DNA of 25,586 nt from a virus: the UHGV virus genome UHGV-0108017; one strand, 5' to 3'. The notes under the pieces are model-generated. The model ran no database searches, was not told where the DNA came from, and worked only from the letters and a program-made list of their open reading frames with translations. Positions 1 to 9,277 of this stretch are shown here, one piece after another. Numbering within the stretch: the stretch's first letter is position 1; every line of letters begins with the position of its first letter. The position numbers and the translations under genes are program-made.

Positions 1-54
1 CATATTGGTCATAGCGCTATCCTTCACGGCTGCATTATATAAAGAGGTAAATCA

Positions 55-67
55 TTTGATACTGCTG
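55..67 (+). repeat. left-end repeat copy 1 (TTTGATACTGCTG), candidate transposase-binding site L1
   Basis: 13-bp motif recurs at 159-171 and 201-213 in direct orientation; followed by AAAAATCCGGG, reminiscent of the Mu L1 region as recalled. Confidence 0.5.
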
Positions 68-158
68 AAAAATCCGGGAGGAAAGTGGATCAAACGGGAT
101 TTGATGGGATAAAACAAACAGTTATGACGTAAAACAGTGTTATGCGCACAACATGTGA

Positions 159-171
159 TTTGATACTACTG
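159..171 (+). repeat. left-end repeat copy 2 (TTTGATACTACTG), candidate transposase-binding site L2
   Basis: Exact 13-mer shared with 201-213; 104 bp from copy 1, close to the Mu L1-L2 spacing as recalled. Confidence 0.5.
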
Positions 172-200
172 TCGCAAAGAAAGCTAAAAACGAAAAAATA

Positions 201-213
201 TTTGATACTACTG
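201..213 (+). repeat. left-end repeat copy 3 (TTTGATACTACTG), candidate transposase-binding site L3
   Basis: Exact 13-mer identical to copy 2; 42 bp downstream of it, close to the Mu L2-L3 spacing as recalled. Confidence 0.5.
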
Positions 214-239
214 ATTTCTGCGATTTTAACGTTTTAAAC

Positions 240-281
240 AGGTTAAAAAACCAGCCGCGGGCTATTGGAATTAGCCCGCCT
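240..281 (-). terminator. putative rho-independent terminator of the repressor transcript
   Basis: 8-bp stem GCGGGCTA (257-264) / TAGCCCGC (272-279) with 7-nt loop; on the minus-strand RNA the hairpin is followed by a UUUUUU run (plus-strand A-run 245-250). Stem overlaps the stop codon at 271-273. Confidence 0.45.
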
Positions 282-855
282 TCGATTCTAAACTACTTGA
301 GAGTTTATCGCTTTCAATTTCTGCCAAAATCTCTCTAACTCTTTCATCCGATAAATGATCTAAAAGTAGAGCTGCTGCACGTTTTCGTCCTTCAAGTTGG
401 ATTAGTTCTTGATTCTCTGGTTCAAGTAACCGTGACAAGTACTTAGCTCCATTTAGCGCGAGGATTTTTGATAATCGCTCTGCCTCTGATGCTTCTAAAG
501 CACTTAGTATAGCAAGAAGGCGCTGTAGCGTTATATCTAGGGGCAATTGGACGTTTTCATCTATTTTAGGTGATATTGGTTCTATATCCTCCTTGCCAAA
601 AACAAGCCAATCAATGCTCACCCCTTCTGCAAAAGCAATCTGACCAGCTACTTGTAGAGATGGTGTCGCATCTTTCTCAAAGTAGTTGTTAAGTGTTGAG
701 AACGGTAGCCCCCACGCCTTCGCCACGGCAGTCTTGGAGCGCCCGCGCATTAACATGGCTAGGCGCTCTTTAATGCTTTCTTTTTGAAACACAGGAAAAG
801 AAAAATCACTTTCTTTTTCAGTGCTTCTTTCTTTTCTGTTAACTATATGATTCAT
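271..855 (-). CDS. prophage repressor (Mu c-like by position), HTH DNA-binding protein
   Basis: Only leftward gene, divergent from ner at the left end. Start taken at ATG 853-855 (MNHIVNRKER...); the ORF-track start at 906 is a GTG. HTH-like segment SKTAVAKAWGLPFSTLNNYF. GC much lower than the rest of the window. Confidence 0.6.
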   Translation of the reverse strand: MNHIVNRKERSTEKESDFSFPVFQKESIKERLAMLMRGRSKTAVAKAWGLPFSTLNNYFEKDATPSLQVAGQIAFAEGVSIDWLVFGKEDIEPISPKIDENVQLPLDITLQRLLAILSALEASEAERLSKILALNGAKYLSRLLEPENQELIQLEGRKRAAALLLDHLSDERVREILAEIESDKLSSSLESKAG

Positions 856-995
856 AAAGAAATATCCTTTTGTAGATAAAAACCACCAAAGAAAGAGATA
901 AAACACCTTTACTTTTCTTTTGTAGTGATCAAATATTTATATGTAGAGATTATCCGGCGGTGTTATCCGCGCAGATAACTTTTAAGGATAAACGA
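856..995. promoter_or_regulatory. divergent early promoter / operator region between repressor and ner
   Basis: Repeated TGTAG(A/T)GAT motifs (871-879, 921-929, 942-950), 18-bp near-palindrome GTTATCCGCGCAGATAAC (962-979), IHF-like GATCAAATATTTA (927-939). Confidence 0.55.
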
Positions 996-1232
996 ATGAT
1001 GTCTATAAATGAAGTTGTTAAACAGGACTGGCACCCCGCGCATGTTGTCGCGGCGGTGCATGTAAAAGGTTTTACTTTACGCTCTCTGTCCATTGAAGCC
1101 GGTTTAAACCAGGATTCTTTAAAGAATGCCCTGTACCGCAAATGCCCAAAATATGAGCGCATTATTGCTGATGCTATTGGTGTTGCTCCGGAGGAGATCT
1201 GGCCCAGCCGTTACGCTCGTAAGGTGGTATAA
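996..1232 (+). CDS. ner: Ner-like DNA-binding early regulator
   Basis: ATG 996 with AAGGA 8 nt upstream. Recognisable Ner/Nlp signature (DWHPAHVVAA...GFTLRSLS...IIADAIGVAPEEIWPSRY). Stop overlaps the RBS of A. Confidence 0.8.
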   Translation: MMSINEVVKQDWHPAHVVAAVHVKGFTLRSLSIEAGLNQDSLKNALYRKCPKYERIIADAIGVAPEEIWPSRYARKVV

Positions 1233-1234
1233 AA

Positions 1235-3322
1235 ATGTTTGTATCAGTTAATGAGCTTGTAGGGCTACCAGGTATGCCGGGAACTGCGCAAGGGGTGCGG
1301 TATTCCATAAGGAAACTGGCCTCATCTGAGCATTTCAGGCGCAAACGTGCGGGTTCAAAAACCATTGAATACAGCATCGACTGCCTCCCTCCGATTACAC
1401 AACGGGCGTTACGTGAGCGACATGTAGCTCAACTGATGGCAAGCGCCCCGCAGGAGATAACTACCCAGCCTCCTGTAAAGCGTGAACGCAAACAAAATGT
1501 TGTACAGCCTGTTGAGGCATATCGCGGTTCGCCACAATTGGTAGAAGAGCGTCTGAATGCGCTTACGGAAAATCAACGTAAAGTTGCAGAAGCGCGCATT
1601 GCTCTTGTCTGTGAAGTTCTACGAATTAGCCAGGAGCCGGGATTCAGTTGTGCCAGCGCTATACGTTTTATTGTGTCGCGGTTAGCACAGGGTAACCTGG
1701 AAGAACGCCTGGAATCTTTGGTCATTACTGCTAATGCCCGTAAAGGAAAAGAGCGAACTCTGAGCGCAATTACGCTCAAACGTTGGATAGCTGCGTTTAA
1801 CAAAGCACAGAATGCCGCAGAACGACTGCTGTTACTGGCACCAGGAAAGCGCGACGAAATAAAACCGGAAGAAATTAGCTGGCTGCCTGAATTTCTGGCG
1901 CAGTATCGTCAGGCTAACGGCAGGCCTATGTCTGAAGCCTATGAGGATTTTGTCGCTGATTGGCAGCGTCGCCATGCGGACGAACCATACATGCTGGAGG
2001 TGATGCCTTCCTATGATGTTGTCCGGTATGCCATGAAAAAACTGCCGGAAGTGGTGAAACAAAAAGGGCGCGTTACCGGCAGTGAATACCGTCAGCTTGA
2101 AGGATTCACCCGCCGCGACTGGACAGCTATGCCGGTGAATTATGTCTGGATTGGTGACGGTCACGGTATGAAGCTGAAATGTGCGCATCCGGTTCACGGG
2201 CGTCCATTTTCACCGGAAGTTACGTTTGTGATCGACGGTGGAACCCGGTTTGTGGTTGGCTGGAGTCTTGATCTTGCGGAGAACGTGTTCGCTGTTGCCG
2301 GGGCGATACAACACGGCATTCGCAATCATGGAAAACCATTCCTGTATTACTCGGATAATGGTTCCGGTGAAACGGCAGATATGCTGGATAAAGAGATCGT
2401 CGGGATTCTGCCCCGTCTGGGGATTAACCACCCCACCGGTATTGCGGGAAATCCGCAGGGACGCGGCATTATTGAACGCCTGAACCGAACATTACCGATG
2501 CGTATAGCCAGGAGGTATCGCACCTATTTCGGCAAGGGTGCTGACCGGGAATCGTTGCGAGTACTTAATCGTGATCTGCGTTCAGCGTTTAATGCCCTGC
2601 AACAGGACAAGCCACTGAGCGCCCGTCAGAAAGCCGCAATGCGCGAGCTGCCGTCCTGGTCAGAACTGATTGAGGCTATCCGTGAGGGGGTGGAGTGGTA
2701 CAACAACCGCCCACATTCTGAATTGCCGATGAAACCAAACGGAAAGCATTACAGCCCGGCAGAGTTCAGAAAAAAACGCTTAGCGGAAGAAGACACTGAA
2801 ATTGAGTGGCTGAGTGATCTTGAGCTGCGCGACATGTTCCGCCCGATGGTGGAGCGTCCGGTAAGACGCTGCGAAATCCAGTGGCTGAACAATATTTACT
2901 ACGCGCCAGAGCTGCGTGATGAACATGGTCGCAAAGTACTTATCAGCTATGACATTCACGATGCCGAGCGAATTACGGTACGCCGTAAGGACGGTAGCTT
3001 TATCTGTGAGGCGATATGGAACGGCAATAAACGCGCAGCCTTTCCTGTCACGGCTGAATATCACAAACAACAGCAGCGTATTAAAGGCATGCGCAAGCGT
3101 GCTGAGGAAAAAATTCGTGATGCAGAGGATGAAGGTATTCAGATTCTGGAACACAAACAGGCTGAACCCTGGCTGGATAATGTTTATCGCCCGGTTGGTA
3201 ATACGGTAACCATCCGGCAACAGGATTATGAGGAAGATTACGACGAAGATTATGAACGCGATTTCAGGCTGGGTTTGCAAAAACTTGCAGCCATACAGGA
3301 ACAGGATGATCCGCTGGCCTGA
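1235..3322 (+). CDS. A: DDE transposase (MuA-like)
   Basis: 695 aa immediately after ner. N-terminal winged-helix-like region resembling MuA; candidate catalytic residues D308 (WIGDGH), D375 (YYSDNGSGE), E414 (IIERLNR) by inspection. Confidence 0.85.
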   Translation: MFVSVNELVGLPGMPGTAQGVRYSIRKLASSEHFRRKRAGSKTIEYSIDCLPPITQRALRERHVAQLMASAPQEITTQPPVKRERKQNVVQPVEAYRGSPQLVEERLNALTENQRKVAEARIALVCEVLRISQEPGFSCASAIRFIVSRLAQGNLEERLESLVITANARKGKERTLSAITLKRWIAAFNKAQNAAERLLLLAPGKRDEIKPEEISWLPEFLAQYRQANGRPMSEAYEDFVADWQRRHADEPYMLEVMPSYDVVRYAMKKLPEVVKQKGRVTGSEYRQLEGFTRRDWTAMPVNYVWIGDGHGMKLKCAHPVHGRPFSPEVTFVIDGGTRFVVGWSLDLAENVFAVAGAIQHGIRNHGKPFLYYSDNGSGETADMLDKEIVGILPRLGINHPTGIAGNPQGRGIIERLNRTLPMRIARRYRTYFGKGADRESLRVLNRDLRSAFNALQQDKPLSARQKAAMRELPSWSELIEAIREGVEWYNNRPHSELPMKPNGKHYSPAEFRKKRLAEEDTEIEWLSDLELRDMFRPMVERPVRRCEIQWLNNIYYAPELRDEHGRKVLISYDIHDAERITVRRKDGSFICEAIWNGNKRAAFPVTAEYHKQQQRIKGMRKRAEEKIRDAEDEGIQILEHKQAEPWLDNVYRPVGNTVTIRQQDYEEDYDEDYERDFRLGLQKLAAIQEQDDPLA

Positions 3323-3323
3323 A

Positions 3324-3360
3324 TAAAAAACAGTCCGCGGGAACGGACTGTTAAGTAAAG
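3324..3360 (-). terminator. hairpin between A and B; intrinsic-terminator geometry on the minus strand only
   Basis: Perfect 8-bp stem ACAGTCCG (3330-3337) / CGGACTGT (3344-3351), 6-nt loop; preceded on + by AAAAAA, so the minus-strand RNA has hairpin then U-run. No U-tract on the + strand. Confidence 0.4.
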
Positions 3361-3394
3361 GAAACAAAGCTGATTTGAATAAACGGAGAATAAT

Positions 3395-4327
3395 ATGACC
3401 GATATTAATGATGTTTTCAACACAATTAATGCGCTGATTACTGACGGTGTAAAAACACAAAGCGCTATCGCCAAAGAAGCTGGCGTGTCGGAGGCCACTC
3501 TTTCTGAACTTCGCAAAGGCCGTTACAAAGGCGATACCGAAGGGATGCACAACAAATTACTGATGTGGCATCAGGGCTGGCAGAAAAGTCTGGAGTTGCC
3601 CGGCACCCCACAACTTGTGGAAACACAGACCCTGCGTGATTTGCGTGAACTTTTTCAGACAGTGCGTGTTATGGGGTGTATCAGCGTTCTGGTGGGTGTG
3701 CCGGGGGTAGGAAAAACCGTTGCGGCCCGTGAATACAGTAACCGCGTATCTAATACCTGGATGGTAACCCTTTCCCCTGCACACTCAACGGTGACGGAAT
3801 GTCTGCTGGAACTGGCAGACGCGCTGGGAATTGATAACCCGCAAAGGAATAAAGGCGCGCTGACCCGTGCCATTCGCAAAAAACTGAACGGTACACGCGG
3901 TCTGGTGATTGTGGATGAAGCTGACCACCTGAGCATTGACGGGCTGGAACAATTACGTGCCATTCAGGATGCCACCGGAGTCGGGATGGTATTGATTGGT
4001 AACCCCAGTCAGTTAGCCAAAGCCACACATCGGGGAACGGATGACCTTGCACGTTTGTTCAGTCGTTTCGCCAGGACAAAGCAACTACGTAAAGCCAAAA
4101 AGGCTGACGTGGTGGCAATTGCGAAAGCCTGGGGCATTGAGGGCGAAGATGAATTATCACTCATGCAGAGCATCGCGGAAAAGCCAGGCGCATTGCGTGT
4201 ATTAACTCACACGCTGAATCAGGCGTGGCTGGCAGCCAGCGGGAAAGGCGTTCCTCTGTCCAAAGGCTACATAAAAGCGGCTTTTAAAGAGGTTTACAGC
4301 AACCCGAAATTACTGAACTGGTGGTAA
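3395..4327 (+). CDS. B: transposition ATPase / target DNA activator (MuB-like, AAA+)
   Basis: 310 aa; Walker A GVPGVGKT (K107) and Walker B LVIVDEADHL seen in translation; N-terminal HTH-like region; sits directly after A as in Mu. Confidence 0.85.
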   Translation: MTDINDVFNTINALITDGVKTQSAIAKEAGVSEATLSELRKGRYKGDTEGMHNKLLMWHQGWQKSLELPGTPQLVETQTLRDLRELFQTVRVMGCISVLVGVPGVGKTVAAREYSNRVSNTWMVTLSPAHSTVTECLLELADALGIDNPQRNKGALTRAIRKKLNGTRGLVIVDEADHLSIDGLEQLRAIQDATGVGMVLIGNPSQLAKATHRGTDDLARLFSRFARTKQLRKAKKADVVAIAKAWGIEGEDELSLMQSIAEKPGALRVLTHTLNQAWLAASGKGVPLSKGYIKAAFKEVYSNPKLLNWW

Positions 4328-4341
4328 GGGGATAATAAATA

Positions 4342-5512: not shown

Positions 5513-5812
5513 ATGGTGGCTGACATGAAGTGTAATCGTAAGCGCTGGTCACGCGAAGACCGGGAATTTATCGAAGCCAACGTCGGGAAAATGACCGTTG
5601 AAGAAATGGCGGAAAAACTGAAAGTCGCCACAACCGCCCTCCGGGCACATGCCAGAAGGCACGGAATATCATTGTGTGTATACCGAATCAGTGAACACGA
5701 CAAATATTTATGTCGTGAACTTTATAAAGAAGGGCTGGATATTCATGTCATTGCCCGAAAGATGGAATTAAGCAATCGAGCTGTATCCAGCATTGTATAC
5801 AGCGGATATTAA
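5513..5812 (+). CDS. hypothetical early protein with putative HTH-like segment
   Basis: 99 aa (alternative ATG at 5525); segment WSREDREFIEANVGKMTVEEMAEKLKVATTALRAHARRHGIS looks like a small helical DNA-binding fold; translationally coupled to the upstream gene. Confidence 0.45.
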   Translation: MVADMKCNRKRWSREDREFIEANVGKMTVEEMAEKLKVATTALRAHARRHGISLCVYRISEHDKYLCRELYKEGLDIHVIARKMELSNRAVSSIVYSGY

Positions 5813-5831
5813 TTAACAGGAGCTTTAATTT

Positions 5832-6356
5832 ATGGCTAAACCAGCAAAACGCATCAAAAGTGCCGCAGCGGCTTATGTGCCACAAAACCGCGATGCGGTG
5901 ATTACCGATATTAAACGCATCGGGGATTTACAGCGCGAAGCATCACGTCTGGAAACGGAAATGAATGATGCCATCGCGGAAATTACGGAGAAATTTGCAG
6001 CCCGGATTGCACCGATTAAAACCGATATTGAAACCCTTTCAAAAGGCGTTCAGGGATGGTGTGAAGCGAACCGCGACGAACTGACGAACGGCGGCAAAGT
6101 GAAGACGGCGAATCTTGTCACCGGTGATGTATCGTGGCGGGTCCGTCCACCATCAGTAAGTATTCGTGGTATGGATGCAGTGATGGAAACGCTGGAGCGT
6201 CTTGGCCTGCAACGCTTTATTCGCACGAAGCAGGAAATCAACAAGGAGGCGATTTTACTGGAGCCAAAAGCGGTCGCAGGTGTTGCCGGAATTACGGTTA
6301 AATCGGGAATTGAAGATTTTTCCATTATTCCGTTTGAACAGGAAGCCGGTATTTAA
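5832..6356 (+). CDS. gam: Gam, host-nuclease inhibitor (Ku-like DNA end-binding protein)
   Basis: 174 aa; translation (MAKPAKRIKSAAAAYVPQNRDAVITDIKRIG...) matches Mu Gam as I recall it, essentially end to end; AGGAG RBS 9 nt upstream. Confidence 0.85.
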   Translation: MAKPAKRIKSAAAAYVPQNRDAVITDIKRIGDLQREASRLETEMNDAIAEITEKFAARIAPIKTDIETLSKGVQGWCEANRDELTNGGKVKTANLVTGDVSWRVRPPSVSIRGMDAVMETLERLGLQRFIRTKQEINKEAILLEPKAVAGVAGITVKSGIEDFSIIPFEQEAGI

Positions 6357-6398
6357 TACCACCATTAATATTTAATTAATTCACATTCTTTTAATTAT

Positions 6399-6428
6399 GG
6401 CGCGATGCGTCAGGGGATTGCTCGCGCC
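6399..6428 (+). other. GC-rich stem-loop in an AT-rich intergenic region (no U-tract)
   Basis: 7-bp stem GGCGCGA (6399-6405) / TCGCGCC (6422-6428), 16-nt loop, within the 98-bp gap between gam and the next ORF; TTAATTAA palindrome just upstream. Confidence 0.3.
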
Positions 6429-6454
6429 TGAAACATATTACAGAGGAATAAAAC

Positions 6455-6994
6455 ATGGTTGATGCAAAAATTCTGAATGGTGTCAGCACATTATTACGGG
6501 CTTACGGACGCCTGACCTGTGGAGTTCTGGCTGAAAAAATGAATATGCTGCCCTCGTCAATGGTGTATTTCCTGCGTGATGCGGTTGATGCCGGAGTGCT
6601 CACCGAATGCAACGGATTTTATGACGTACCGCGTCCCCGTACAGAGCAGCCTGTAAGACGAAACGCAACTGAGCAGCCTGCTGTTGATGATGCGGTGTGG
6701 TGCAACTGGCGTCGCTCATTACCCTGGGTGGAAGGTAATACCATCCCTGCGCTGGCAAAAGAGTTTGCGACGGGCGTGCTGACCTGTGAGTCAGTCCACA
6801 TTGTTGCTGAGGTGGATAACAGAATGTGCGAACAGGGAATGCCCCGTTTTGTGATGGCTTATATCGATATCCGGCTGGGGCGTTTTATTTGCAGTTCAAG
6901 CGCCTGGAATATCACCGACCATGTACTGCGTTATCTCATCATTGATTTTTCATCAGCACCGGGTGTGGTGCAGGAGGCTGGTTGTGAAATTTGA
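6455..6994 (+). CDS. hypothetical early protein, possible winged-helix N-terminus
   Basis: 179 aa; AGAGGA RBS 7 nt upstream; N-terminal LLRAYGRLTCGVLAEKMNMLPSSMVYFLRDAVDAGVLTE is wHTH-like by eye. Confidence 0.5.
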   Translation: MVDAKILNGVSTLLRAYGRLTCGVLAEKMNMLPSSMVYFLRDAVDAGVLTECNGFYDVPRPRTEQPVRRNATEQPAVDDAVWCNWRRSLPWVEGNTIPALAKEFATGVLTCESVHIVAEVDNRMCEQGMPRFVMAYIDIRLGRFICSSSAWNITDHVLRYLIIDFSSAPGVVQEAGCEI

Positions 6995-7688
6995 AGACTG
7001 GGGTATTGATAAAAGTTGTGGCCGGGACGTCCTGGTGTACAAAAGCTGTAGCGTGATTGAAGGAGAAGATGCCTGGCAGGTTCTGGATATACTTCGTTCT
7101 GCTTTATGCAGAGCTGGCTATGTTACGCCAGCGTCAGTTAATGGCGGAACTGCCACTACCTGTATCAGAAAGCAACTTTATAGTTTTTATACAGCCTACA
7201 ACCGATGGTTAAAGAATGGGGCAATGGAGACGGGCGATGATGTATTTACCCGGGCTGCCGGATTATGTGCCAATGCTTACGATTATTTTGAATCAACCGG
7301 TGCAGACAGTGAAGCCGCATTAGAACAATTACATGCGGACTTTATCTCAGCAGGGCTGAATGAGAAATTGCCATTTAACCGGGACAGCAAACATTACAGA
7401 AACGAAAGCAAATTGGCCAGATGCCACCAGAATTCAGCACGTGTGGCATGGGTTGAAAAACACTGTATTAGTTCTGATTCAGAAATAACGGGGAAAAAGA
7501 CAGTCGGTGAAACATCGTATTCGTGGCTGGGGAAATTTACCACGGTGAAACAGGAATGCCCGACCTGCGGTAATGAATCCCCTGAATATCTGAAAGAGTG
7601 TCCCCATTGTGGCGGGCAGAAATGCAACCACTGTGATATGGGCGATGACACGGCGTGCATGAATTGTGAAGGTGAACAGAATGAATAA
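6984..7688 (+). CDS. hypothetical protein with C-terminal 4x CxxC zinc-ribbon cluster
   Basis: Start proposed at GTG 6984, 6 nt after AGGAGG (6972-6977); the ORF track extends to 6921 inside the upstream gene. C-terminus CPTCGN...CPHCGGQKCNHCD...CMNCEGE. Confidence 0.5.
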   Translation: MKFEDWGIDKSCGRDVLVYKSCSVIEGEDAWQVLDILRSALCRAGYVTPASVNGGTATTCIRKQLYSFYTAYNRWLKNGAMETGDDVFTRAAGLCANAYDYFESTGADSEAALEQLHADFISAGLNEKLPFNRDSKHYRNESKLARCHQNSARVAWVEKHCISSDSEITGKKTVGETSYSWLGKFTTVKQECPTCGNESPEYLKECPHCGGQKCNHCDMGDDTACMNCEGEQNE

Positions 7689-7989
7689 TGGCGTATTTAC
7701 AAAATCCGAGGAACTGACAGCGTTGTTGACGGCGGCTGGTTTTCCTGAAGATGTGATCGGTAACTTTGTGGCGGCGGTATATGCCCCGTCTTATAACCGT
7801 GCAATTGATGAGGTCATGGCGTACCGACTCGGCATTGTTGCTGAGTCACTGAGTCCTCACTGGATTATTGAAAATCTCCGCGCTATTGCTGATGGCAACG
7901 ATAAATCAGCAGCCGTTGCTGCACTGGATGTGTTACGGCAAATGAGTCTGAAATTTTATCCTGAATTTATTCTGAGGGCCGCAAAATGA
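7681..7989 (+). CDS. hypothetical early protein
   Basis: ATG 7681 overlaps the upstream stop; the ORF-track start 7666 is a GTG. 102 aa, no recognisable motif. Confidence 0.45.
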   Translation: MNNGVFTKSEELTALLTAAGFPEDVIGNFVAAVYAPSYNRAIDEVMAYRLGIVAESLSPHWIIENLRAIADGNDKSAAVAALDVLRQMSLKFYPEFILRAAK

Positions 7990-8288
7990 ACAATGAAGAT
8001 AAATTTACTCCCCTTAATATTGATAACGTCATGGCTGAAAAAAGGATGCTGGAACGTGTTCGCGCTATCGTTGAATATGGTATTAAGCATGAACTCACCG
8101 CCAGAGAAGTTCGTGACATTATCAACCGCGAAATGAATCGTCTGGAAACATTAGTGGCACTGCAAAATGAAACAGCCCGCGAGGAGTACATCCGCCGCAG
8201 GCTGGGGTTATCAGACCAGGATATTGTTACTGACGCTCATGTGTTTGAGGCTTTTGAGATCCGTCAGCATCTGGGCCTTACGAACTGA
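7986..8288 (+). CDS. hypothetical early protein (predicted helical / coiled-coil)
   Basis: 100 aa, ATGA overlap with the upstream gene; charged helical composition. Confidence 0.45.
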   Translation: MNNEDKFTPLNIDNVMAEKRMLERVRAIVEYGIKHELTAREVRDIINREMNRLETLVALQNETAREEYIRRRLGLSDQDIVTDAHVFEAFEIRQHLGLTN

Positions 8289-8300
8289 TGTGTAAATTCA

Positions 8301-8327
8301 GGCGGTGTTGCAGCACCGCCTCTTTCC
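8301..8327 (+). terminator. terminator-like hairpin (possible attenuator) upstream of gemA
   Basis: 7-bp GC-rich stem GGCGGTG (8301-8307) / CACCGCC (8314-8320), 6-nt loop, followed by TCTTTCC. Confidence 0.3.
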
Positions 8328-8339
8328 GGAGGTACGATC

Positions 8340-8891
8340 ATGAGTCGCACATCCCTGATTAAATTAATCCATGTTGCCCGTCGGGAGCTACAACTCGACG
8401 ACGACACTTACCGCGCTTTTCTGATGCAGAAAACGGGCAAAATCAGTTGCCGCGAGCTTACGGTTACGCAACTGGAACAGGTGCTCGATGCCATGAAAGA
8501 ACGCGGCTTTAAGAAGCTGAATAAATACCCCCGTCGCCGCTTTAAGGGACATGTCACACCCCGCGAGAAGGTGTATAAAATCTGGCAGCAGATGGCAGAA
8601 GACGGTTTTATTACCGATGGCGGTGATGTGGCGCTGGACAGATATGTTCAACGCCTGACCGCGAAACGCAACGGCGGACAGGGTGTTTCCACACTGGCGT
8701 GGTGTCATGGCGACACGCTGCTGACAGTCCTCGAAACACTCAAGCAGTGGCACATCCGCTGTATTCGTGAAGCCTTTTCCCGTCACGGGCTTCCGTTGCC
8801 GGTCAGTCCGTCCGGTCGTGAACTGCGCGGCTATGATGCCATGACGGCGGCTTATGCCCATGCCAGAAAGACACGGAGGATGGCACAATGA
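8340..8891 (+). CDS. gemA: GemA-like protein (Mu gp16 family)
   Basis: 183 aa directly upstream of and overlapping mor, as in Mu; N-terminus MSRTSLIKLIHVARRELQLDDDTYRAFL resembles the GemA family as recalled; GGAGG RBS. Confidence 0.65.
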   Translation: MSRTSLIKLIHVARRELQLDDDTYRAFLMQKTGKISCRELTVTQLEQVLDAMKERGFKKLNKYPRRRFKGHVTPREKVYKIWQQMAEDGFITDGGDVALDRYVQRLTAKRNGGQGVSTLAWCHGDTLLTVLETLKQWHIRCIREAFSRHGLPLPVSPSGRELRGYDAMTAAYAHARKTRRMAQ

Positions 8892-9277
8892 CGGAAGATT
8901 TATTTGGTGATTTGCAGGATGACACCATCCTGGCACATCTTGACAATCCCGCAGAGGATACGTCACGCTTTCCGGCACTGCTGGCGGAGCTGAACGATTT
9001 ACTACGCGGGGAATTGTCCCGGCTGGGTGTTGATCCTGCCCATTCACTGGAGATTGTTGTGGCTATCTGTAAGCATCTGGGCGGCGGTCAGGTCTACATT
9101 CCACGCGGTCAGGTTCTGGACTCGCTGATTCGGGATTTGCGTATCTGGAATGATTTTAACGGTCGCAACGTCAGCGAACTGACCACCCGTTATGGTGTCA
9201 CTTTCAATACGGTTTACAAGGCCATTCGCCGGATGCGACGGCTGAAATACCGCCAGTACCAGCCCTCACTTCTGTAA
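8888..9277 (+). CDS. mor: Mor-like middle-operon transcriptional activator
   Basis: 129 aa; C-terminal region is clearly paralogous to the C-like protein at 10070-10492 (GG-Q-YIP-G...RD...FNGRN..EL); ATGA-coupled to gemA. Confidence 0.8.
   Translation: MTEDLFGDLQDDTILAHLDNPAEDTSRFPALLAELNDLLRGELSRLGVDPAHSLEIVVAICKHLGGGQVYIPRGQVLDSLIRDLRIWNDFNGRNVSELTTRYGVTFNTVYKAIRRMRRLKYRQYQPSLL

Follow-up and report, generated by a model that had tools for sequence, protein, structure and literature searches.

The two overlapping genes at positions 6455-7688 of the UHGV virus genome UHGV-0108017 raise the question of whether a Mu-like phage encodes here a dedicated pair of regulators or one of several states of a recombination-prone gene slot. 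The analysed stretch, hereafter the window, comprises 25,586 nucleotides and represents, by sequence comparison, the left part (25.6 kb) of a Muvirus genome. A sequence-only reading had described the genes as a translationally coupled pair, composed of a winged-helix-like protein and a zinc-ribbon protein of presumed nucleic-acid-binding function, that has no counterpart in phage Mu. The two open reading frames (ORFs), the AGGAGG-6 nt-GTG initiation signal and the four CxxC motifs named in that reading are all present, and the encoded proteins match the Gp11_C and phrog_6418 families, respectively; the supposed lack of a Mu counterpart, however, proved wrong, as gene 1 is gp11, the ribbon is gp13 (E14), and only 530 bp in the middle are foreign. 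We regard this anatomy and the origin of both genes, as detailed below, as practically certain. The locus is composed of the following features:

6455..6994, plus strand: gene 1, gp11 homolog, 179 aa; ATG with GAGG 8 nt upstream, TGA at 6992-6994
6972..6986, plus strand: initiation signal of gene 2; AGGAGG at 6972-6977, 6-nt spacer, GTG at 6984-6986
6978..7507, plus strand: mosaic cassette of 530 bp with breakpoints at ~6977/6978 and 7507/7508, as placed by blastn against Mu, L005, L002 and L029
6984..7688, plus strand: gene 2, chimera of modA, modB, linker and gp13 zinc ribbon, 234 aa; TAA at 7686-7688
6984..7154, plus strand: modA, residues 1-57, which matches the N-termini of separate small proteins
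7155..7493, plus strand: modB, residues 58-170 (approximate), a predicted helical domain of ~100 aa
7470..7508, plus strand: unique linker SSDSEITGKKTVGE, residues 163-176 (14 residues)
7509..7676, plus strand: Mu gp13 (E14) segment, residues 176-231, with four CxxC motifs; Cys codons within 7557-7664

Gene 1 is the ortholog of Mu gp11 and lies directly downstream of gam. Its product is identical to Mu gp11 (Mup11, NP_050615.1; formerly E10-E12) in 165 of 174 aligned residues (95%, BLASTP), and it matches phrog_1949 (E 1.4e-105) and the Pfam family PF25754 (Gp11_C), the latter with 134.6 bits at a cut-off of 27 (E 1.5e-39), residues 90-166 being aligned to positions 1-77 of the 78-position profile. 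In Mu, gp11 occupies the same place after gam and its 3' end is also coupled to the next gene. The last ~5 codons of the window gene come from the new cassette, so that its product has 179 aa versus 176 in Mu gp11, and the two proteins also differ in an interdomain linker, which reads RTEQP in the window and RPTPP in Mu. All 221 gp11 homologs found at E<=1e-3 contain PF25754 and belong to the Enterobacterales; a scan of one genome per species with the gp11 profile added only one further locus, from Citrobacter.

The AlphaFold2 (AF2) model of gp11 is poor overall, with a mean predicted local distance difference test score (pLDDT) of 62.6. Residues ~1-57 are modeled as three helices (pLDDT ~65) with a possible hairpin after them, which is weakly reminiscent of a winged helix-turn-helix (HTH); residues 58-89 form a Pro/Arg-rich linker of low confidence that is presumably disordered, and the C-terminal alpha+beta domain is better defined (pLDDT 78-92). 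The N-terminus matches the Pfam families HTH_10 and HTH_CodY only below threshold (best E 0.046), and a winged-helix-like fold is plausible by the model. This N-terminal domain is not basic (net charge 0, isoelectric point (pI) 6.0), and its presumed recognition helix, PSSMVYFLRDAVDAG, contains one Arg and two Asp. For the C-terminal domain we considered and set aside weak papain-like and Tudor-like matches; gp11 has no invariant His that could serve in a catalytic triad. No repeats of evident meaning were found in 6300-7800; a 13-nt direct repeat in the gp11 linker (ACAGAGCAGCCTG at 6641-6653 and ACTGAGCAGCCTG at 6668-6680, 27 nt apart) encodes TEQP twice, the first copy corresponding to PTPP in Mu, and may represent a small conversion event in the disordered linker.

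Gene 2 begins inside the 3' end of gp11, with an overlap of 11 nt. The GTG at 6984 is supported as its start by the equivalent start assigned by the Prokaryotic Genome Annotation Pipeline (PGAP) to the same architecture in two Escherichia coli genomes (WP_244588664.1), by the called start of the cluster representative P0001 (MKFEDWG), and by the alignment of two separate modA-family proteins, P0181 and P0187, which begin at the corresponding residue (P0181 with an ATG and an upstream GAGG). The identical AGGAGG signal and GTG are found in the loci L003 and L004, and none of the six other alleles has lost the GTG. The earlier start at ATG 6921 proposed by an ORF finder (255 aa) was rejected in favor of GTG 6984. 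The resulting protein matches phrog_6418 with residues 1-231 aligned to the full profile (positions 1-231 of 231; E 2.3e-163) and shares 97% identity with P0001 over 99% of its length. The AF2 model of the chimera, built from a 148-sequence alignment, has a mean pLDDT of 58.7, and only the ribbon and one helix are confident. At E<=0.001, Foldseek found no structural match in BFVD; in PDB, searches with gp11, the chimera, and the A2 and A4 profiles returned nothing below E 0.2.

The origin of gene 2 is explained by a cassette replacement. The 530-bp cassette takes the place of 537 bp of Mu (L001 2179-2715, the gp12 cassette), and its flanks are ~95% identical to Mu by blastn. At the right junction, DNA alignment shows that the Mu segment GGAGGTAAACAATGGAAAACAAT, which contains the gp13 ribosome-binding site, the ATG and the first codons, corresponds to GGGGAAAAAGACAGTCGGTG in the window, and homology to Mu resumes at the TSYSW codons. 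The linker of the chimera thus lies at the position that in Mu is occupied by the end of gp12 and by the ribosome-binding site, ATG and first four codons of gp13. In other words, the chimera arose when the gp12 cassette was swapped out, from the final codons of gp11 up to codon 5 of gp13. Mu gp13 (Mup13, NP_050617.1; formerly E14) is 60 aa long and is translated separately, from a GGAGG and ATG of its own, and its gene overlaps the end of gp12. Since the GGAGG and ATG of gp13 have been replaced in the window, the start signals of gp13 are gone and the ribbon would be made only as the C-terminal domain of the 234-aa protein. The displaced Mu gp12 (Mup12, NP_050616.1; formerly E13; phrog_2314, and PF26885 in newer Pfam) fills the same slot between gp11 and gp13 with a cassette of nearly equal length; however, it has no detectable sequence or profile similarity to the window cassette. 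Residues 1-175 of the gene 2 product gave a BLASTP E value of 14 against gp12 and no match to phrog_2314, and hhalign assigned a probability of 0.8% to the comparison of modB with the gp12 profile and found no relationship of gp11 with either gp12 or modB. Similarity of the cassette to the modB gene that stands alone in other Mu-like prophages (68.6%) is confined to 7166-7470.

The two N-terminal modules of the chimera belong to families of different breadth. modA matches the N-termini of P0181 (112 aa; query residues 1-52) and P0187 (64 aa; query residues 1-45), and in a Mu-like prophage the P0181 gene immediately precedes a gp14-like gene. In the homolog search of gene 2, conducted against 50%-identity representatives at E<=1e-3, most of the 549 matches fall on modB. 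One of the proteins examined, P0157 (697 aa, eight matching stretches), was discarded as a low-complexity artefact. modB proteins are usually stand-alone and ~100-110 aa long, sometimes duplicated or fused to another domain, for example to DUF551 in P0007; a stand-alone 129-aa modB gene (P0002) occupies the same slot in other Mu-like prophages. Alignment of 85 sequences (A4) revealed invariant W, G-L-C and P-F motifs and nearly invariant F, Y, E, N, R, W and V residues. No member has a Pfam match and the profile has no PDB match; the copies of Pfam and NCBIfam that we searched hold nothing for modA, modB or Mu gp12. modB is encoded in 234 phage records and, in the plasmid search, in a single record. 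In N4-like (Erwinia Frozen and Ea9-2, Achromobacter Axy10) and T7-like (Ralstonia RSB1) phages it maps to the first 2-4 kb of the genome, and rV5-like/phAPEC8-like phages contain 2-4 copies per genome (e.g., NC_052660.1 tuntematon and JX561091.1 phAPEC8). The modB proteins of lambdoid and other phages (phrog_2510), among them DUF551 fusions such as P0007, and the stand-alone ~105-aa early proteins of N4-like, T7-like and rV5-like phages share the W, GLC and PF(N) motifs with the window protein, but they have other fusion partners or none, and the gp13 ribbon occurs in none of them.

The C-terminal ribbon belongs to the gp13/E14 family. Residues 176-231 are identical to residues 5-60 of Mu gp13 at 54 of 56 positions (96%), and the segment matches phrog_5584 with E 4.6e-41; the window ribbon shares all eight cysteines with Mu gp13 and carries a three-residue C-terminal extension, QNE. 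The cluster described by the sequence-only reading is real and contains four CxxC motifs, although its first spacer comprises 8 residues rather than 9: it reads CPTCGN-x8-CPHCGGQKCNHCD-x6-CMNCEGE, with cysteines at positions 192, 195, 206, 209, 213, 216, 224 and 227. Conservation of these cysteines in homologs is borne out by an alignment of 13 ribbons of 54-98% identity (A5), in which all eight, together with the K, D, G and D of the KCxxCDxGD core, are invariant. Residues 190-220 are the best-modeled part of the chimera (pLDDT 81-91). A profile search returned 316 ribbon homolog clusters, mostly of stand-alone 44-70-aa proteins; unlike the 45-70-aa proteins of the gp13/E14 family, the window ribbon has no stand-alone start or ribosome-binding site. 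Where longer proteins were examined, the ribbon forms their C-terminus and follows unrelated N-terminal parts (among them phrog_18493, phrog_9662, Phage_ProQ_C_like, and the N-terminus of P0011). P0011 represents a second, independent fusion, in which a different N-terminus is joined to the same ribbon downstream of an intact gp12 in another Mu-like prophage.

The ribbon has a net charge of -8 and a pI of 4.3, and this strong acidity argues against nucleic-acid binding. Its matches to zinc-ribbon families and RPA12 are weak (E 0.003-0.2), those to simple zinc-ribbon models being below threshold. The cysteine-rich domain of DnaJ (PF00684; four CxxCxGxG motifs, two zinc ions) likewise has four closely spaced CxxC motifs within ~40 residues; the likeness is an analogy only, as the chimera scores 15.4 bits and Mu gp13 18.2 bits at a cut-off of 32.7 (E 0.003-0.023). 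The GxG signature of DnaJ has no counterpart in the ribbon motifs CPTCGN, CPHCGG, CNHCDM and CMNCEG, and the two CPxCG knuckles, 8 residues apart, are closer to a simple zinc ribbon than to DnaJ. A 50-aa ribbon homolog was also observed in Thauera sp. (L088 5001-5153; AMXC01000004.1), in a non-Mu island that also carries DUF3268, HTH_5, DUF1173 and H-NS-like genes; in this strain an IS605-type OrfB/TnpB insertion immediately precedes the homolog.

The fused gene was identified in seven loci, namely the window, L003, L004, L007, L008, L009 and L042; of the six others, two lie on E. coli chromosomes and four on IMG/VR contigs. Neither the GTG nor the ribosome-binding site has been lost from any of the seven, and the frame is intact over at least 231 codons. 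Relative to the window, the ratio of nonsynonymous to synonymous changes (pN/pS) is 0.27-0.47 overall (~0.3) and 0.10-0.17 in the linker and ribbon; the fused frame is under purifying selection. The 90%-identity cluster of P0001 comprises 138 member sequences. modB has been exchanged between alleles with the frame kept, L003 resembling P0002 in residues 120-150. The closest described protein, WP_244588664.1/phrog_6418 (231 aa) from E. coli Mu-like prophages, has the same three modules, GTG and neighbors at ~92-97% identity; it ends in CEGE, whereas the window copy continues with QNE and overlaps the next ATG, and its modB segment differs from that of the window by an internal exchange. The arrangement is rare: among 5,426 complete E. 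coli genomes, two contain at least 80% of window positions 6400-8300, which span the fusion, and the full-length chimera is absent from 50,697 phage records. Among the 72 evaluable gp11 loci of IMG/VR, the genes downstream of gp11 are distributed as follows:

24 of 72 loci: Mu gp12, no gp13
25 of 72 loci: Mu gp12 and gp13
4 of 72 loci: stand-alone modB, no gp13
4 of 72 loci: modA-modB-gp13 fusion
2 of 72 loci: gp13 directly
13 of 72 loci: none of gp12, modB and gp13

In total, gp12 occurs in 49 of these loci, modB in 8 and neither in 15; Mu gp12 and modB were found together in none of the 72. In other Mu-like prophages, each of the three source modules of the chimera is encoded by a gene of its own between gp11 and gemA. 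Thus, gp11 is a conserved anchor and the genes after it vary, which indicates that the two genes of the window are not a dedicated system but one state of a recombination-prone slot. The coupled pair of the sequence-only reading therefore stands as far as adjacency, the 11-nt overlap and the strong ribosome-binding site inside gp11 are concerned; a dedicated pair the two genes are not, as gp13 is present in only 31 of the 72 gp11 loci.

The genomic setting places both genes in the early region of the phage. From position 4330 onward the window is ~98% identical to Mu and D108, and Yersinia phages vB_YpM_5 and vB_YpM_6 are 97.7% identical to it across nearly the whole length. Positions 1-4330, which contain the immunity and transposase end (repressor, ner, A and B), have no Mu or D108 match at the megablast level and match vB_YpM_5 and vB_YpM_6; the left-end module of the phage thus differs from that of Mu. 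Three neighboring genes were assigned by Pfam:

5832-6356: Gam
8340-8891: GemA
8888-9277: Mor

The presence of these genes on both sides shows that the locus lies within the semi-essential (SE) early region, and the gene order gam, gp11, X, gp14, gemA, mor is shared by the window, Mu and ~80 loci. In Mu, the SE region belongs to the same long early transcript as A and B and comprises 14 ORFs, few of them with an assigned function, and its deletion restores host viability (PMC3325207). The semi-essential early (SEE) region is described as little conserved and as made up of small genes whose products are uncharacterised (PMC8705779). The two proteins of the window do match Mu early proteins, although gp11 and gp13 themselves are not well characterised. 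A simple consensus scan for sigma-70-like promoters revealed no match on either strand in 5800-8400, where shuffled sequences predict 4.4 +/- 2.0, and this result fits a long promoter-free early operon. Rfam gave no matches across the whole window.

Several local differences from Mu surround the two genes. The 98-nt spacer between gam and gp11 has a predicted fold of -19.7 kcal/mol (z -2.05) and contains a GC-rich stem-loop at 6399-6428 (GGCGCGA...TCGCGCC) that lacks a U-tract; a breakpoint at 6435/6440 is located directly 3' of this stem-loop, at a place where L002, L003 and L029 have an inserted DUF5420 gene. Downstream of gene 2, and outside the locus proper, one further gene precedes gp14:

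7681..7989, plus strand: downstream ORF (orf102), 102 aa, phrog_1988 (E 3.7e-42), between gene 2 and gp14

Its ATG at 7681 (MNNGVF...) overlaps the stop codon of gene 2; relatives use this ATG, while the ORF list gives GTG 7666. The gene is absent in Mu and D108 and present in Yersinia phage vB_YpM_3, in several E. coli prophages, and in L002, L003 and L005. Between gp14 and gemA, ~219 bp of Mu are missing (window 8289-8340 versus Mu L001 3191-3409, blastn), which removes most of the minus-strand gene gp15 of Mu, so that only its last 20 codons match (tblastn). Just upstream of gemA we observed a GC-rich hairpin, GGCGGTG-TTGCAG-CACCGCC, followed by TCTTTCC.

What, then, could these proteins do? 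We tentatively propose that they are dispensable early accessory proteins acting on host proteins, in which the ribbon serves as an acidic portable module with interchangeable partners. By analogy with Mu, both genes would be transcribed within the long early transcript and translated as a coupled string of gp11, the chimera, orf102 and gp14. After infection or induction, the accessory proteins would act on host proteins, with host takeover or counter-defence as their likely function, rather than as DNA-binding regulators. The eight-cysteine ribbon, as judged from its sequence, probably binds two zinc ions and is most likely an acidic, portable C-terminal module for protein interaction or stabilization. 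Its partner modules, joined in cis or acting in trans, would be gp12 in Mu, modA-modB in the chimera, and others elsewhere. The existence of such fusions gives a hint that gp13 and the gp12 slot may be functionally connected. A more specific possibility, which we find rather unlikely, is that the gp13 ribbon is a targeting or adaptor module that brings interchangeable effectors (gp12 in trans; modA-modB and other N-termini in cis) to one host machine. If so, the common host machine could be, for example, a defence system, a protease or a replication factor, the gp11-to-gp14 interval would be a plug-and-play counter-defence locus, and the fusions would provide Rosetta-stone evidence for a partnership of the gp12 slot with gp13.

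Several points weigh against our interpretation. Both AF2 models are poor, and the case for zinc binding, like that for how the cysteine motifs pair, comes from sequence. Linker residues 171-189 are basic (net +3); acidic as the ribbon is, other parts of the chimera could bind RNA or DNA. The Thauera homolog in a non-Mu island means that the ribbon is not specific to phage early regions. Synonymous divergence among the fused alleles is low (4-17%), which limits the power of the selection test, and modA has no synonymous differences among them. Literature searches on Mu gp11, gp12 and gp13, on Gp11_C, DUF5420 and Phage_Mu_Gp12, on an anti-defence role and on accessory-region screens found nothing relevant. 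Taking the anatomy, the origin and the mechanism together, we nevertheless consider the explanation as a whole to be probable.

A reading along the lines of the original idea, that gp11 is a winged-helix DNA-binding regulator and the ribbon a nucleic-acid-binding inhibitor or regulator, the two constituting a dedicated two-component pair, draws on the three helices and possible hairpin of the gp11 model, the sub-threshold matches to HTH_10 and HTH_CodY, the 11-nt gene overlap and the weak ribbon matches to zinc-ribbon families and RPA12. No HTH or winged-helix match reaches the threshold, however; the presumed recognition helix contains a single Arg against two Asp, in a domain of net charge 0, the ribbon carries a net charge of -8, the genes after gp11 vary, and the ribbon has many other partners, also outside Mu-like elements. 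A nucleic-acid-binding role thus finds no support in the properties of either protein, and we consider such a pair unlikely. The observed rarity of the fusion, the dispensability of the SE region (PMC3325207) and the close relationship of the alleles, with few substitutions available for a selection test, would also agree with a selectively neutral fusion left behind by illegitimate recombination in a hypervariable region, with the chimera functionless or decaying. This explanation appears improbable given that the GTG, ribosome-binding site and full frame are preserved in all seven loci, that pN/pS in the ribbon is low, that modB was exchanged between alleles (L003 versus P0002) with the frame preserved, and that an independent ribbon fusion exists in P0011.

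It is very unlikely that the ribbon is still made separately by internal initiation, yielding two polypeptides as in Mu: an in-frame GTG at 7545 (47 aa) and ATGs further downstream are available, and stand-alone ribbons of 44-50 aa exist in other genomes, but the canonical GGAGG and ATG of gp13 are deleted, GTG 7545 lacks a good Shine-Dalgarno sequence (the upstream sequence is GGCTGGGGAAATTTACCACG), and no gene caller splits the ORF. Finally, the genes might serve the prophage host, as a superinfection-exclusion or defence moron, and not lytic development. Variable and mutually exclusive alleles in one slot are typical of conflict loci, and a ribbon homolog resides in a non-phage island; against this, the genes are located inside the early operon with no promoter-like site nearby, the lysogen of Mu keeps this operon repressed, its transcription starting at the early promoter (PMC3325207 and established Mu biology), and modB occurs in the early regions of strictly lytic N4-like, T7-like and rV5-like phages. 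We regard a host-serving role as highly improbable.

Mu is a classic model phage, and the locus is otherwise ordinary phage mosaicism. Both Mu families were already known, though uncharacterised, and the exact chimera is present in RefSeq and PHROGs as "hypothetical"; new here are the architecture, in which gp12 is replaced, gp13 is fused and the ribbon is a portable C-terminal module, and the recognition of modB as a broad phage early-gene domain that has no curated family. The allele shows that gp12 is a replaceable cassette and that covalent fusion of the gp13 ribbon to unrelated modules is tolerated and has occurred repeatedly, and these repeated fusions suggest that the ribbon works together with the occupant of the neighboring slot. 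Since modB is widespread in the early regions of Mu-like, N4-like, T7-like and rV5-like phages, it is a reasonable candidate for screens of host-takeover and anti-defence functions.

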